From assembly GCF_000027125.1 (NCBI RefSeq), contig NC_017626.1: a stretch of 64,000 bases of DNA; one strand, 5' to 3'. Positions within the stretch are counted from its first letter, which is position 1. Each line of letters starts with the position of its first letter. The position numbers were made by a program, and so were the translations under genes. Below the pieces are notes generated by a model. The model saw only the letters and a list, made by a program, of their open reading frames with translations. It did no database searches and was not told the DNA's origin. Origin of the DNA: Escherichia coli 042 (GTDB lineage: Bacteria; Pseudomonadota; Gammaproteobacteria; Enterobacterales; Enterobacteriaceae). Positions 12,921-29,503 of the stretch are shown here, piece by piece.

Positions 12921-13721
12921 TCACCACCAGGCGTGGAAGTGGTGAACCGGACCAATACCGTGACCAACTTCCAGCGTGTCGGCCTGGGCTAATGCCGATG
13001 AAAGCCAGCTTTTTGCCTCCTGTACGGTGTCAGCCCAGTTTGTATGGCGCGGGTGCAGTGCAGCCAACGCCGCAGAGAGCGTACAACCAGTGCCGTGAGT
13101 GTTTTTGGTCATAATGCGCTGTGCGGTAAACCGTTGTTCACCCTCGCGGGTAAACAGCCAGTCCGGGCTTTGCTCATCATCCAGATGACCACCTTTCATT
13201 AGCACTGCGCCACAGCCCATCGCCAACAGCGATCGCCCTTGTTCCAGCATTTCCTGTTCGGTGCGCGCGTGTGGCGCGTCGAGCAAGGCGGCTGCTTCGG
13301 GCAAGTTTGGCGTTATTAATGAAACCTGTGGCAATAATCGACTGCGTAGCGTGGCAACTGCCGAAGGTGAAAGCAGCGGGTCGCCGCTTTTTGCCAGCAT
13401 AACGGTGTCGAGTACCACGTTTTGGATCTGATAACGTTGCAGCCGTTCTGCCACCGCTTCAACAATATCGGTTTCCGCCAACATACCGATTTTAGTGGTA
13501 TCGATTCGCACATCGCTGAACACCGAATCGAGCTGGGCGGCGACAAAATCAGGCTCAATGCGATAAACCGACTGTACGCCACGGGTATTTTGCGCCACCA
13601 GCGCGGTGATTACCGAGCAACCATACGCACCTAGCGCCGAGAAGGTTTTAAGATCGGCCTGAATCCCCGCACCACCACTCGGATCAGTACCGGCAATCGT
13701 CAGAGCGTTAATTCGTTTCAT
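12921..13721 (-). CDS. thiD: Hydroxymethylpyrimidine/phosphomethylpyrimidine kinase
   Basis: 266-aa ORF; PfkB-like kinase directly downstream of thiM with 4-nt overlap. Confidence 0.92.
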
Positions 13722-14506
13722 GCCTGCACCTCCGGCGTCAATTGCCAGAGCGCATCAAGGAAATGTGGAACAAAACTGCCTGGCCCCTCGCTTCTGGCGA
13801 CTGCGCGTTCTCCGGCTTGTTTCATCCAGTGACAGGCAGATGCGACGTTTTCCAGCATATCGCCGGGTAACGCACAACAGGCAGCGACAACCGCCGATAA
13901 TGCACAGCCAGTTCCTACCACTTTGGTCATTAACGGATCGCCACCGTGAATGCCAATGATACGATGTCCATCGGTAACATAATCCACCTCGCCAGTGACC
14001 ACGACGATTGCGCCAGTTTCCCGTGCCAGTGTTTGTGCAGCGGGTATCGCATTAGCTGCGGCGTCAGTGGTATCCACTCCCCGTCCGCCATTAGCAATGC
14101 CAGCTAATGCCATGATTTCCGAAGCATTACCACGTATGGCTGTTGGCTTATGAGACAGAAGTTCCAGACAAAAACAGCGGCGATAGTCGAGTGCACCAAC
14201 CGCAACCGGATCAAGCGTCCAGGGTGTTTGAGAGCGTTTTGCTTGCTCAACGGCGGCACGCATCGCCTGTGCGCGTGGCTGCGTCAGTGTGCCAACGTTA
14301 ATCAGCAACGCACTGGCGATAGCCGCAAACTGACTGGCTTCTTCGGTTTCGATAACCATCGCTGGCGATGCACCGAGCGCCAGTAAGGTATTGGCAGTAA
14401 AAGTTTGCACCACATCATTGGTCATGCAATGCACAAGAGGGGAATGTTGGTGAAAAAGGTGTAACGCGTGCGCAGATTGCGCGGAACTCAGCAGGTCGAC
14501 TTGCAT
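13718..14506 (-). CDS. thiM: Hydroxyethylthiazole kinase
   Basis: 262-aa ORF preceded by a TPP riboswitch. Confidence 0.92.
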
Positions 14507-14509
14507 AGT

Positions 14510-14640
14510 TTGCTCCTGCCATAACGTGAAGAAGCAATGACCTGGTGGTCCGTGACTTCCCTACGCTGGCATTATCCAGATCAGGTGATACGGGTATTTC
14601 TCAGCCTTCACGCAGAAGGGCACCCCGAGTCGTTTGATTG
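14510..14640 (-). ncRNA. TPP (thiamine pyrophosphate) riboswitch, thiM leader
   Basis: Minus-strand sequence ...ACGACUCGGGGUGCCCUUCUGCGUGAAGGCUGAGAAAUACCCGUAUCACCUGAUCUGGAUAAUGCCAGCGUAGGGAAGU... contains the THI-box (CUGAGA) and matches the classic E. coli thiM aptamer as I recall it. Confidence 0.9.
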
Positions 14641-14728
14641 CGATGATAAATCGCAGAGGAGGATGGTAATGTCCAGCGCACCCGTTGTAAACGAGGAAAA
14701 ACGGCAGTTTTACAATCGCGTTAATAAA

Positions 14729-15001
14729 TTATTTGATATATGAATCCAGCACCTTCAGAACGACATCCAGATCTTCTTCACGTTTTAGCTCATCCCCCTG
14801 GTGAACGATGTGTTCCGTCAGATGACCTTTAATCACTTCCCGCATCAGACCGTTTACCGCGCCACGGATAGCAGCAATCTGTTGTAAAACTGCAGCGCAT
14901 TCGTGCGGCTCGTCGAGCATTTTCTTGAGCGCCACGACCTGGCCCTGAATCTTACTGGCACGCGCTTTCAGTTTCTGTTTATCACGGATGGTATGAGACA
15001 T
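14729..15001 (-). CDS. rcnR: Ni/Co-responsive transcriptional repressor RcnR (CsoR/RcnR family)
   Basis: 90-aa ORF starting [10 protein letters not shown] with conserved His/Cys ligands; divergent from rcnA. Confidence 0.92.
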
Positions 15002-15049
15002 GGCAACACCTGGTTAACAAGAATATGAAAAATCATAGCACTATTAATC

Positions 15050-15084
15050 TACTGGGGGGTAGTATCAGGTACTGGGGGGGAGTA
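15050..15084. promoter_or_regulatory. Two RcnR operator sites (TACT-Gn-N-AGTA) in the rcnR-rcnA divergent promoter region
   Basis: tactggggggtagta (15050-15064) and tactgggggggagta (15070-15084): inverted TACT/AGTA half-sites flanking G6 and G7 tracts. Confidence 0.85.
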
Positions 15085-15121
15085 GAATAAGATTGCCGAA
15101 TTAATACTAAGAATTATTATC

Positions 15122-15967
15122 ATGACCGAATTTACCACTCTTCTTCAGCAAGGAAACGCCTGGTTCTTCATCCCCAGCGCCATCTTACTTGGTGCGCTTC
15201 ATGGCCTGGAACCAGGGCACTCAAAAACGATGATGGCGGCGTTTATCATCGCCATCAAAGGCACCATTAAACAAGCGGTGATGCTCGGACTGGCAGCAAC
15301 TATTTCGCATACCGCAGTGGTCTGGTTAATTGCCTTTGGCGGGATGGTGATCAGCAAGCGCTTTACTGCTCAATCAGCAGAACCGTGGCTCCAGCTGATT
15401 TCCGCAGTGATCATTATTGGCACCGCGTTCTGGATGTTCTGGCGTACCTGGCGCGGCGAACGCAACTGGCTGGAGAATATGCACGAGTATGATTATGAGC
15501 ATCATCACCATCATCACGATCACGAACATCATCAAGACCACGAACATCACCACGACCATGGACATCATCACCATCACGAACATGGCGAGTATCAGGATGC
15601 CCATGCACGAGCCCATGCCAATGACATTAAACGACGCTTTGATGGTAGAGAGGTCACCAACTGGCAAATTTTGTTATTTGGCTTAACCGGTGGCCTTATC
15701 CCCTGCCCGGCAGCAATTACCGTGCTATTGATATGCATTCAGTTGAAAGCCCTGACACTGGGCGCAACACTGGTCGTCAGTTTCAGCATTGGCCTGGCGT
15801 TTACGCTTGTCACCGTAGGCGTTGGCGCAGCAATCAGCGTTCAGCAGGTCGCAAAACGCTGGAGCGGATTTAACACTCTCGCTAAACGCGCCCCCTATTT
15901 TTCCAGTCTGTTGATTGGCTTAGTCGGTGTGTATATGGGCGTACATGGCTTCATGGGCATAATGTGA
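15122..15967 (+). CDS. rcnA: Nickel/cobalt efflux protein RcnA with histidine-rich cytoplasmic loop
   Basis: 281-aa membrane ORF; central HEYDYEHHHHHHDHEHHQDHEHHHDHGHHHHHEH segment encoded by a codon repeat at about 15480-15600. Confidence 0.92.
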   Translation: MTEFTTLLQQGNAWFFIPSAILLGALHGLEPGHSKTMMAAFIIAIKGTIKQAVMLGLAATISHTAVVWLIAFGGMVISKRFTAQSAEPWLQLISAVIIIGTAFWMFWRTWRGERNWLENMHEYDYEHHHHHHDHEHHQDHEHHHDHGHHHHHEHGEYQDAHARAHANDIKRRFDGREVTNWQILLFGLTGGLIPCPAAITVLLICIQLKALTLGATLVVSFSIGLAFTLVTVGVGAAISVQQVAKRWSGFNTLAKRAPYFSSLLIGLVGVYMGVHGFMGIM

Positions 15968-25705: not shown

Positions 25706-28700
25706 ATGAGACACTTTATCTTTCAGGACGAAAAATCACATAAATTCTGGGCGGTGGAGCAACAGGGAAACGAGCTGCATATTAACTGGGGTAAAGTCGG
25801 CACTAACGGGCAAAGTCAGGTAAAAAGCTTTGCAGATGCTGCGGCGGCGGCAAAAGCGGAGCTTAAGCTGATCGCAGAGAAAACGAAAAAAGGCTATGTG
25901 GAAAATGCTTCAGCAAACGTGCATATCCCCCCCATCACCAAAGCCACTCCTGAAGTTGAAACCTCCCTTGAGAGTAAAAACAAACGCCCATGGCTGGCTG
26001 ATGATGCAGTCATTCCGGTCACTGACGATATTAATCGATTTGCTTTTCCTCATCGCTCTCGCCCCAGAGAGATCAATTATCTGTACAAAGATGGTCAAAT
26101 ATGGCAGCTCATCGCGAATAACACCAGGGCATATGATCCCGCCAACAATTACCGTTCTTATCCAGAAAACTGGCAGCAGGCTTTTGCTGAGTTACAAATG
26201 CGAGTTCAGGGTAATCAACAGACAGGGAGTGCACAATCTGATGCAGCATTGCTCTGGAGTTTCTGGAACTCTTACTCTGCAGATGAACTGGTCGATGACT
26301 TAGTCATTCGCTGTGGTCTGGAAAGTGCCGTTGAAATTGCCCTTCTCGCTCTTCAACTTAGATATAAACCAGTAAAAGGCGCAGTAACCACCATCATTCC
26401 ACCTAATCACAAAGCAGAATCGCTGCCGAGTTGGCATCAACGTCTATGTCATCATCTTTCACTCGCTTCAGAAGATGAGTGGCAACGCTGTGTAGATAAA
26501 GTACTCGCCGCCATTCCGACGCTATCCCCAGCACGGCAACCTTTTGCGGCGTTACTGCTCCCCGAATGCCCGGATATTGCCAATGCTATGGCGCTACGTT
26601 ATGCAGATCAAAACGTTCCGGCGATGACCTGGTTAAGACTGGTGGTAACCGATGACGCCGCTCTGACTACAGCAGAAAAATACGACTTCCCACCGTTGTA
26701 TCATGATTTTCGCGCTTATCTGGCAATGTTGCTGGCAAATAATGGGGTGCGCGGTGTAAGCCGGATACTTCTTGAGTTTACGGAAGAGCATTCTGACAAT
26801 CCCACTTATCTTTTCGAGCGTATCAGCGAGACTGAAGATCTTGTCAAATGGCTATGGAAAACGAATCACCCGGATGCGATTCAAATTCTGATCCTCGGTG
26901 TGATTGGCAAGAAAAAGCACCTGGAATACTTAAGCAAAGCCTGTCAAAAACATCCCGCTGCGGCTCTTGCCGCTTATGCTACTTTGCTGGCAATACATGA
27001 AGACAAAGAGTGGCGTAAAGCGCTTGTCAAACTGATTACCGCCACGCCAGAGTTAGTCACTGACGTCATTCCCAGGGTTAATGCTAAAGCGGCAGGAATT
27101 TTATCTGAATGTCGTACTCAGTTAGTCGCTGAAGAATGTGAATACGCCACTGCGGATATGTTGCCGGAGCTGTTTGTCGCTCCACCGTGGGTAATAAATA
27201 AGAAAACGAATGTAATACCCGTATTTGATTTACCGGTGCTTCCCATCCCTGCCGTCACTGACATCACGCCAGGAATTACAGAGTTAATCAGTCATACTGA
27301 CATATCCAGATTCAGTGAAATCGCGCAATTTCAGTCATCACAGCAAACCTTATTTACCGACCTGCCACTAATTGAAAAAGAAAGCTGGGAGACATCTTTC
27401 ATTCCTTTTACACCAGAACAACAAATCCTTTGGCAATTAGGTTTTAATGAATGGCTGCATTGCGAAGATGACTTACATGAAAAAAAATATATACCGCAAA
27501 GCGCTGTTGATGCGTTGTTGCGCTTTGATTTTCCAGCACTAAAAGCTGAGTTTGCGAAATATCACAACAATGCCAACAAAAGCTGGAATCTATCTGCGCT
27601 TTGTTACTTACCGGGACAACAGGCGATTTCATTTCTCAACCAAATAATCATTGAGGAGCGATATTCAGGTGAGAAAGAGATTCTGGCGGTTTTTGGTAGT
27701 ACAGCCATTCCTGCGTTTATGACCTGCTTGCAACGAGATCATCAACGACTGTGGATATTCACCCTCTTTATTGGGGCCAGTGAACTAGCCTTACCAATGG
27801 CGCAGCGGTTACAGAAAAAAATGGCTTACAAGGATGCCGTTAATTGGCTGGCAAATAACCCGCGCCATGCCACCGCCGGGCTACTGCCTTTGGCGCTGGG
27901 CAAACCGTGCCAAAATCGGGAATATGCCCGCCAGGCACTCCGCCTGCTAGTGAAATTAAACCAGCGAGAAACGATTGAAGAAATCGCCCGGAGATACAAC
28001 CAACCTGATGTTTTAGCTGCGCTGGCAACATTGTTCGATAGCGATCCGCTGGAAGAATATCCCGCTAAAATCGCCCCACCGCCCGGCTTTTATCAGTTCA
28101 CCTTATGGCGCAGACCACGGCTTAAAAGTAACAACCTGCCTCTGCCAGATGACGCTATGCGCCACCTGGGCACAATGTTGAGCTTTCCACGCGACATTAC
28201 CGCCTACGCTGGGCTGGCGACCATCAAAGAGACCTTCACCCGCGAATCACTGGCTGACTTTGGCTGGGATCTGTATACCGCATGGACAGAAGCTGGCGCA
28301 CCCGCAAAAGAAAACTGGGCATTTACTTCGCTGGGGATTCTAGGCAATGACGACACCGCGCGTAAACTAACCCCGCTCATCCGCGCCTGGCCGGGTGAAT
28401 CCCAGCATAAACGCGCGGTTTACGGGCTGGATGTGTTAGCCAGTATCGGTAGCGACATTGCGCTTATGTTGCTTAATGGCATTGCGCAAAAGATTAAATT
28501 CGTTGCATTACAGGAACATGCCAGCGACAGAATCAATATGGTCGCCGAAAATCGCGGACTGACAATGGCCGAACTGGAAGATCGCCTGGCACCGGATTTA
28601 GGGCTTGATAGCAGTGGCTCGCTGACACTGGATTTCGGCCCACGCCAATTCACCGTTGGTTTTGACGAAACTTTAAAACCTGTAGTGCGCGACGCAAACG

Positions 28701-29503
28701 GCAAAGTCCTGAAAGATTTGCCCAAACCAAACCAGAGCGATGAAAAAACTCAGGCAACTGACGCGGTTAATCTCTTCAAACAGTTGAAAAAAGATGTACG
28801 CGCCATAGCCAGCCAGCAGATTGATCGTCTGGAACAGGCTATGTGCCAGCGCAGACGCTGGACGGCAGAGCAGTTCCGCCTGTTTCTGGTGGAGCATCCG
28901 CTGGTACGTCACTTAACCCGACGGCTGTTATGGGGGGTTTATAACGATGAAAACGCCCTTATCACCTGTTTTCGCGTGGCAGAAGACAGCACTTACAGCG
29001 ATGCGCAGGATGAGTTATTCACGCTGCCAGCAGGAAACATCGGTATACCGCATGTGCTGGAAATCCCCCCTGAATCCGCCGCTGCATTCAGGCAAATTTA
29101 CGTTGATTACGAACTGCTTCCCCCTTTCCAACAGCTCGAACGTGGTAGTTACCACCTTGCTGATAACGAACGTAATGTCCATGAATTGTCACGCTGGGAC
29201 GGACGGCTCTGCCAGGCTGGTCGCATTGTCGGGCTGGAACGCAGAGGCTGGCAACGTCTGGAAGAAAGCGGCAGCGTCTATGCGATGCGCAAATCTACCC
29301 CTTATGGTGCTCTCGAACTTGAAACAGAACCTTTTTCATTAATTTATGGCGAAACGGGGTATAGCGACCTGCTGCCTGTCGAAAGCGTAAAAATCACCGC
29401 CCCTTATGATCGCTATGGTAAACAATCCTCACCCACTTTCTCCGTGCTCGACGACATCACCGCCAGCGAGCTGATTAACGACATTGAATCACTGTTTGAT
29501 TAA
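25706..29503 (+). CDS. molR: Large WGR-domain / DUF4132-like protein, paralog 1 (molR-like, intact here)
   Basis: 1265-aa uninterrupted ORF; N-terminal about 75 aa (KFWAVEQQGNELHINWGKVGTNGQ...KKGY) fits the WGR domain pattern; C-terminal two-thirds homologous to paralogs 2 and 3. Symbol is a tentative assignment. Confidence 0.75.
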   Translation: MRHFIFQDEKSHKFWAVEQQGNELHINWGKVGTNGQSQVKSFADAAAAAKAELKLIAEKTKKGYVENASANVHIPPITKATPEVETSLESKNKRPWLADDAVIPVTDDINRFAFPHRSRPREINYLYKDGQIWQLIANNTRAYDPANNYRSYPENWQQAFAELQMRVQGNQQTGSAQSDAALLWSFWNSYSADELVDDLVIRCGLESAVEIALLALQLRYKPVKGAVTTIIPPNHKAESLPSWHQRLCHHLSLASEDEWQRCVDKVLAAIPTLSPARQPFAALLLPECPDIANAMALRYADQNVPAMTWLRLVVTDDAALTTAEKYDFPPLYHDFRAYLAMLLANNGVRGVSRILLEFTEEHSDNPTYLFERISETEDLVKWLWKTNHPDAIQILILGVIGKKKHLEYLSKACQKHPAAALAAYATLLAIHEDKEWRKALVKLITATPELVTDVIPRVNAKAAGILSECRTQLVAEECEYATADMLPELFVAPPWVINKKTNVIPVFDLPVLPIPAVTDITPGITELISHTDISRFSEIAQFQSSQQTLFTDLPLIEKESWETSFIPFTPEQQILWQLGFNEWLHCEDDLHEKKYIPQSAVDALLRFDFPALKAEFAKYHNNANKSWNLSALCYLPGQQAISFLNQIIIEERYSGEKEILAVFGSTAIPAFMTCLQRDHQRLWIFTLFIGASELALPMAQRLQKKMAYKDAVNWLANNPRHATAGLLPLALGKPCQNREYARQALRLLVKLNQRETIEEIARRYNQPDVLAALATLFDSDPLEEYPAKIAPPPGFYQFTLWRRPRLKSNNLPLPDDAMRHLGTMLSFPRDITAYAGLATIKETFTRESLADFGWDLYTAWTEAGAPAKENWAFTSLGILGNDDTARKLTPLIRAWPGESQHKRAVYGLDVLASIGSDIALMLLNGIAQKIKFVALQEHASDRINMVAENRGLTMAELEDRLAPDLGLDSSGSLTLDFGPRQFTVGFDETLKPVVRDANGKVLKDLPKPNQSDEKTQATDAVNLFKQLKKDVRAIASQQIDRLEQAMCQRRRWTAEQFRLFLVEHPLVRHLTRRLLWGVYNDENALITCFRVAEDSTYSDAQDELFTLPAGNIGIPHVLEIPPESAAAFRQIYVDYELLPPFQQLERGSYHLADNERNVHELSRWDGRLCQAGRIVGLERRGWQRLEESGSVYAMRKSTPYGALELETEPFSLIYGETGYSDLLPVESVKITAPYDRYGKQSSPTFSVLDDITASELINDIESLFD

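Follow-up and report, generated by a model that had tools for sequence, protein, structure and literature searches.

The apo form of RcnR represses both of the divergent promoters, that of rcnR and that of rcnA. [quoted passage not shown] The second element of the locus, a repeat in the part of rcnA that encodes a His-rich loop, has been known for about 20 years as a marker for MLVA, under the names O157-19, TR7, or VNTR-19 in E. coli O157 and STTR5 in Salmonella. TR7, which is the same as O157-19, is built of a 6-bp unit, for which 15 isolates plus the EDL933 control yielded 5 alleles (PMC3768571). STTR5 lies in Salmonella yohM (the rcnA of that genus) “between two domains of YohM”; in vitro, its copy number changes one unit at a time within 50 generations, and up to 26 copies have been reported (PMC5183578).

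In this study, we compared a copy of this locus from E. coli 042 with its counterparts in other E. coli genomes and in other species. The window, that is, the whole stretch of DNA analysed, is 64,000 nucleotides long, and the region considered within it comprises the divergent rcnR-rcnA control region and the first two thirds of rcnA, on the E. coli chromosome. The locus is an ordinary one and is largely known, its operator from biochemistry and its VNTR from two decades of MLVA outbreak typing. Our reading of the whole is that of a known tandem operator with constrained G tracts next to a coding VNTR loop, with no switch involved (probability about 0.85). If so, the locus would hold two slippage-prone sequences with opposite evolutionary behaviour, the operator tracts being constrained and the loop variable. 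Novelty is confined to the list of one-base operator alleles and their fixation in O121:H19 and O111 clones, and it is minor, at the population level.

The gene order around the locus is thiM-rcnR-rcnA-rcnB-yehA. The genes and RcnR sites of the window are the following:

14729-15001, minus strand: rcnR, Ni(II)/Co(II)-responsive repressor, 90 aa (open reading frame; NCBIfam RcnR equivalog NF011613, 197 bits; annotated as rcnR in homologous RefSeq loci)
15050-15064, plus strand: RcnR site 1, TACT-G6-T-AGTA, TACTGGGGGGTAGTA, with G6 at 15054-15059; matches the published consensus
15070-15084, plus strand: RcnR site 2, TACT-G6-G-AGTA, TACTGGGGGGGAGTA, with G7 at 15074-15080, the more length-variable tract
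15089, plus strand: A/C SNP; the A of the window is the minority base and C the K-12 type (the 85-nt allele of the window is exact in only 366 genomes)
15122-15967, plus strand: rcnA, nickel/cobalt efflux protein, 281 aa (274 aa in K-12; NCBIfam nickel/cobalt efflux transporter, 563 bits)

In homologous RefSeq loci the two genes are likewise annotated as rcnR and rcnA, and the RcnR protein of the window is 100% identical to other E. coli RcnR. The intergenic region between the two genes is 120 nt long and holds both RcnR sites; over this length the window differs from K-12 by one SNP, the one at 15089. With regard to the other end of rcnA, the reading frame finishes in the window as ...GIM-TGA (15962-15967), while K-12 and most alleles end in ...GIMR, the final Arg codon CGA having become TGA. 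The rcnA product of strain ECCTRSRTH03 (WP_000134584.1) also has 281 aa, as in the window.

The two sites of the window are the published tandem type-1 RcnR operator, whose identity was already known, as judged from the sequence: both match the consensus, they lie between the divergent rcnR and rcnA, and the sequence, the number of sites, the spacing of 20 nt from start to start, and the position all equal those of the E. coli operator (Iwig and Chivers, 2009), with no difference in the window. The pattern TACTGGGGGGNAGTA occurs exactly twice in the 64 kb, at these two sites (0.00 occurrences expected from shuffles). The preliminary description had noted a G6 run in one site and a G7 run in the other, and these are present as it stated; the difference in G-tract length, however, is not one in the length of the sites. 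Both sites are 15 nt long with a spacer of 7 nt between TACT and AGTA, and the contrast comes from a substitution at the N position of TACT-G6-N-AGTA, T in site 1 and G in site 2. Slippage between the sites as the origin of G6 versus G7 was considered and rejected, as genera from Escherichia to Vibrio share the T/G difference. Given this conserved arrangement, the difference is ancient and has been maintained, and is not the trace of a recent slippage event.

The depth of the conservation was assessed on rcnR loci from 80 Enterobacterales species representatives. A two-site layout between rcnR and rcnA was found in 70 of them. The distal spacer (site 1) is GGGGGGT in 59 of the 70 two-site loci, the proximal one (site 2) is GGGGGGG in 73 of 79 loci, and the sites are 20 nt apart, start to start, in 67 of the 70. 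Overall, about 90% of the 80 representatives keep the G6T/G7 arrangement, which occurs in Escherichia, Citrobacter, Salmonella, Raoultella, Kosakonia, Rahnella, Hafnia, Erwinia, Morganella, and a Vibrio. Column conservation over the 70 two-site loci is at least 90% across both sites, against 30-50% in the flanks. This pattern, read from the aligned sequences, indicates that the 7-bp spacer is under purifying selection and would not be a tunable tract; both the 20-bp site spacing and the 7-bp spacer would be held in this way across the Enterobacterales.

One-base tract variants are nevertheless found among the species representatives, at roughly the 5% seen in E. coli (below). In the proximal tract these are Citrobacter sp. 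R56 (G6), Enterobacter sp. R1 (G8), and one Morganella (G8), and at the distal site S. enterica arizonae (G5) and C. amalonaticus AUH (G7T). Such scattered cases would fit recurrent mutation that selection purges over time. In addition, operators with a single site occur naturally in Edwardsiella, Erwinia psidii, Morganella, and Enterobacter sp. CC120223-11.

Tract alleles in E. coli were counted with the 63-nt segment 15026-15088, chosen to avoid two common flanking SNPs, in the 5,343 complete E. coli genomes that have the locus. As the query is shorter than 100 nt, its “≥99%” band holds exact matches only, although partial matches can also enter it (for G5/G7, 28 genomes lie in the band and 19 match at full length). 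The alleles are given as site 1/site 2:

G6/G7: 4,815 genomes, 90.1%
G6/G6: 126 genomes, 2.4%
G6/G8: 105 genomes, 2.0%
G7/G7: 29 genomes, 0.5%
G5/G7: 19 genomes at full length, 0.4%
65-nt alleles (G7/G8 or G8/G7): 3 genomes, 0.06%

The remaining 246 genomes (4.6%) have other alleles, mostly substitutions, such as TAGTA to TAGCA in EA7. One-base tract variants are thus present in about 5% of the 5,343 genomes, and in nine variant loci that were fetched all single-base intergenic indels fall within a G tract. The suggestion that the tracts differ in length between strains is therefore not refuted by this broad panel, since the lengths are not invariant in it.

A larger change was found in E. coli 97_3250 (NZ_CP074773.1; intergenic 2477-2576, corresponding to 15050-15084 of the window), in which an exact 20-nt deletion between the direct-repeat sites leaves one hybrid site. 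This site is identical to site 2, TACTGGGGGGGAGTA, and has the sequence of the natural single-site operators of the other genera; the thiM and rcnA proteins of the strain are those of O111 strains. A junction query for the single-site allele gave 53 genomes in the “≥99%” band, which include normal two-site genomes with the halves of the query joined, and only 97_3250 is documented. The departures from the published E. coli operator, namely the one-base tract alleles and this one deletion allele, thus belong to genomes other than the window. No description of either kind of allele was found in the literature searched.

It must be considered whether all of the G-tract variants arose as homopolymer errors when long reads or 454 data were assembled, the operator being truly invariant in E. 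coli. Some of the variants do look like errors: two of the first seven single-base variant loci fetched, LAU-OXA and M37H, combine a variant tract with a frameshifted rcnA within 1 kb; the K-12 derivative ER2683, a laboratory strain, has G6/G6 on an otherwise K-12 haplotype; and clonal groups such as ST131 contain scattered variants (ZH193, SaT040). From the two frameshifted loci and ER2683, some of the sporadic variants are likely to be assembly errors. The same alleles, however, recur where different laboratories have assembled genomes of one lineage independently. The G8 genomes include at least eight O121-type STEC from several laboratories, of which RM8352 and FWSEC0006 have an identical 1,864-nt locus with G8, and the O111 genomes 11128 (a reference genome) and FWSEC0005 have an identical locus with G6/G6. 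This recurrence in O121:H19 (G8) and O111 (G6) implies that part of the variation is real. Enterobacter sp. R1, whose assembly is of the SPAdes style (NODE_), has G8 as well.

A control run also speaks against an explanation by errors alone. The window has no G7 tract within an essential gene to serve for this purpose. The only other 7-mer G/C run of the window, C7 at 25927-25933, lies in the open reading frame 25706-29503, which encodes a 1,265-aa protein with DUF4132/WGR domains according to the RefSeq annotation. At this run, 483 genomes matched the reference allele exactly, 2 had C6 and none C8, plus one C8 on a SNP background, so that frameshifting one-base alleles are very rare there. 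One-base variants thus amount to 4.6% at the operator G7 tract and 0.4% at the coding C7, roughly a tenfold difference (odds ratio about 12), where the Fisher test is indicative only because the genomes are phylogenetically related, and where the control is a weaker one in that its 63-nt surroundings were matched in only about 1,600 of 5,426 genomes, a large number of these being O157:H7 genomes, possibly sequenced on a different mix of platforms. In attention to both lines of evidence, we consider it quite improbable that errors account for all variants. The G7 tract is probably a true, if minor, hot spot for indels, in which variants are tolerated and now and then become fixed, some of the sporadic cases probably being errors. 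This is the new piece of the present analysis: the operator G runs behave as an indel hot spot (about 5% of genomes, some ten times the coding control) despite the deep conservation of the 7-bp spacer.

Regulatory G runs with one-base alleles in the population are also a property of the phase-variable promoters and operators of Neisseria and Haemophilus, and the G tracts of rcnR-rcnA could be imagined as a contingency element of that kind, with frequent and reversible slippage selected as a means of diversifying the set-points of Ni/Co efflux. The recurrence of one-base alleles on many backgrounds, above the control rate, is what such an element would produce, and the G7 tract probably lies between the conserved TAGTAT and a putative −10 hexamer TAGAAT, 17 nt apart, so that one base would change the geometry of the promoter. 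Phase-variable homopolymers are typically of 8 or more nt, and these tracts, of 6 and 7 nt, are shorter. Contingency loci of Neisseria and Haemophilus also differ from this operator in that its dominant allele is conserved across a bacterial order and there is no evidence of on/off states or rapid switching: the exact G6T/G7 is kept by 90% of E. coli genomes and by about 90% of species representatives, each variant reaches at most 2.4%, and no lineage was mixed in the pairs fetched, the two O121 loci being identical to each other and the two O111 loci likewise. The literature search returned no published report of phase variation at these tracts. We therefore regard a phase-variable element as highly improbable. 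Instead, we infer that the tract alleles are mildly deleterious or near-neutral variants and do not form a switch. One-base gains and losses in the short G runs would be infrequent, giving alleles found in about 5% of genomes and fixed in a few clones.

The possible effect of a tract change depends on the promoters. A consensus promoter scan gave a single hit, which was implausible as its −10 abuts the rcnA ATG, and the promoters were placed by cross-species conservation instead. Literature searches for mapped transcription starts of rcnA or rcnR yielded nothing usable. The elements concerned are:

15032-15040, minus strand: putative extended −10 of rcnR, TGCTATGAT; 62 of 70 species loci have a TGnTAnnnT motif here
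15060-15065, plus strand: TAGTAT, 17 nt upstream of the putative −10 of rcnA
15083-15088, plus strand: putative −10 hexamer of rcnA, TAGAAT, placed by conservation only; overlaps the 3′ half-site of site 2

In the 70 species loci, the conserved columns continue for 4 nt beyond site 2, the last of them being the final T of TAGAAT, and the hexamer keeps the form TAnnnT in most genera; on these two grounds TAGAAT was taken as the −10 of rcnA. Under this placement of the promoter, gain or loss of one base in the G7 tract would alter the spacing of the half-sites of site 2 from 7 to 6 or 8 bp and, at the same time, the spacer of the rcnA promoter. Spacings of 6-9 bp are tolerated by type-1 sites of this family, according to a passage of PMC3902906. 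Considering this tolerance and the existence of natural single-site operators, it is plausible that the variants would keep partial function.

The clones in which one-base alleles are found include STEC O121:H19 (G8), and O111 and a subset of O157:H7 (G6). It is conceivable, although we regard it as rather doubtful, that these alleles, by altering the 7-bp spacer of site 2 together with the putative 17-bp spacer of the rcnA promoter, give such pathogenic clones a heritably different basal or induced efflux of Ni and Co. The literature searched gave no functional data for spacers altered by one base or for loops of different length, and the suggestion of the preliminary description that variation in the tracts or the loop could tune the regulation or the capacity of metal efflux is not supported by the present results. 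If repression is changed by the O121:H19 and O111 alleles, important pathogens would carry natural variants in the regulation of metal efflux, and these would offer a natural series for studying how spacer length affects recognition in the CsoR/RcnR family.

The second slippage-prone element, the His-rich loop of RcnA, behaves differently. Its position and that of the published typing primers are as follows:

15404-15439, plus strand: site of the PulseNet VNTR-19 (O157-19/TR7) forward primer (primer from PMC8461963), 2 mismatches in the window and 0 in O157:H7 (locus L008)
15482-15598, plus strand: repeat encoding the His/Asp/Glu-rich loop, 117 nt, 39 codons, an imperfect array of period 9/18
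15681-15709, minus strand: site of the PulseNet VNTR-19 reverse primer, 3 mismatches in the window and 1 in O157:H7 (L008)

The low-complexity His-codon repeat reported in the preliminary description was confirmed. Tandem Repeats Finder gave arrays of period 9 and 18 at 15500-15583 (score 101, 80% matches), a repeat search found 11 registers at 9-nt spacing over 15476-15600, and the codons are cat, cac, gat, gac, gaa, and gag. The repeat also gives rise, as had been proposed, to spurious open reading frames, at 15374-15667 (minus strand, 97 aa), 15414-15608 (minus strand, 64 aa), and 15417-15686 (plus strand, 89 aa). This is a caution for annotation pipelines, as a low-complexity His repeat yields long spurious frames in three other reading frames.

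The expectation that the loop varies in length between strains is supported, as it is highly polymorphic in multiples of 3, both in E. coli and across the Enterobacterales. Ten length classes, from 78 to 132 nt, were present in 17 E. coli loci, and the matches of a 1,239-nt query ranged from 1,197 to 1,249 nt, mostly 1,215 (the K-12 type), the others differing in steps of 3 except in the G-tract cases. The loop of the window is 24 nt longer than that of K-12, by 6 nt (two His codons) and one 18-nt unit encoding HHQDHE. Perfect arrays in E. coli include (GACCAC)4, 7, and 8 in the O157-type strains PNUSAE146744, 118/EC4115, and NZRM4165, respectively, (CACGAG)5 in a mink isolate, and (CATGAT)1 versus 2. 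In other species the loop may have almost no His or extend to 54 residues, and the hexamer arrays include (GACCAC)23 in Hafnia alvei, (GACCAC)12 in Salmonella, and (CATGAG)10 in a Citrobacter. Of the slippage-driven variation that had been proposed for both elements, the loop part therefore stands, and so do the rare G-tract variants, but not the G6/G7 contrast itself.

This repeat corresponds to the known typing markers. The published VNTR-19 primers flank the loop, and the 6-bp unit varies in copy number between strains. The predicted amplicon measures 306 bp in the window against 297 bp in O157:H7; for alleles of O157 type the predicted sizes, 297-321 bp, fall inside the published range of 283-357 bp. 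Literature searches found no direct statement that TR7 (also CVN014 or Z3274) lies in rcnA, and the link was made here by primer mapping. The primers of the O157:H7 marker flank the same loop as in the window; the O157 alleles, however, are (GACCAC)4, 7, or 8, and the window, besides its 2 and 3 primer mismatches, has an interrupted array of period 9/18. STTR5 of S. Typhimurium is in the orthologous gene and the same loop, and in the Salmonella loci fetched it is likewise a (GACCAC)n hexamer array, with 12 copies in S. enterica diarizonae and 9 in arizonae. These arrays are long and perfect (9-12 copies), unlike the degenerate one of the window, where no perfect unit exceeds 2 copies. From this interruption, the allele of the window is probably among the more stable forms.

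As for the origin of the variation, the loop, which is cytoplasmic and encoded by degenerate 3-, 6-, and 18-nt repeats, would grow and shrink in frame by replication slippage and, tolerating large changes in length, would behave as a classic coding VNTR. Its length might instead be tuned adaptively, the number of repeats setting the capacity or selectivity of Ni/Co efflux under selection by niche. The loop is rich in residues that serve as metal ligands (H, D, E), and its length differs widely among lineages and species; for STTR5, alleles of middle length predominate and extreme ones mutate back toward the middle, from which the authors suggest a possible functional constraint (PMC5183578). 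On the other hand, some species have almost no His in the loop, so a long loop is dispensable, the rapid change exploited in outbreak typing fits near-neutral slippage, and the literature search found no experiment tying loop length to efflux. Adaptive tuning is, on this balance, unlikely, and the reading of the loop as a coding VNTR is preferred.

Some further observations were made on the surroundings of the locus. The TPP riboswitch of the thiMD leader lies at about 14540-14640 (minus strand), between thiM (13718-14506, minus strand) and rcnR, on the basis of homologous RefSeq annotation; a 68-aa open reading frame at 14537-14743 (plus strand) overlaps it and is probably spurious. While thiM and the riboswitch are upstream of rcnR in the window and in most E. 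coli, the 900 nt preceding rcnR in two O157:H7 loci (L008 and L102) contain genes for a hypothetical protein and for an “outer membrane protein”. This arrangement implies that the O157:H7 lineage has an insertion separating thiM from rcnR. A common T/C SNP at about 15024 (AAGAATATG versus AAGAACATG) is found just upstream of the putative rcnR −10, for example in O157:H7 and EA7. Most of the 1,249 genomes that one E. coli operator search placed in its 95-99% band are probably explained by this SNP. About 5,345 places in E. coli genomes match the rcnR-rcnA operator, one of them on a plasmid record, and rcnR/rcnA are also mentioned in papers on mcr-9 IncHI2 plasmids.

Finally, in the species representative of Escherichia whittamii, Sa2BVA5, about 150 nt have apparently been lost between two 14-nt direct repeats, GGCAACACCTGGTT and GGAAACGCCTGGTT, which correspond to 15002-15015 and 15152-15165 of the window. 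The loss may be real or an artefact. The whole operator-promoter region and the first 10 or so codons of rcnA would be gone in this locus, and the start of rcnR would abut rcnA at about codon 11.
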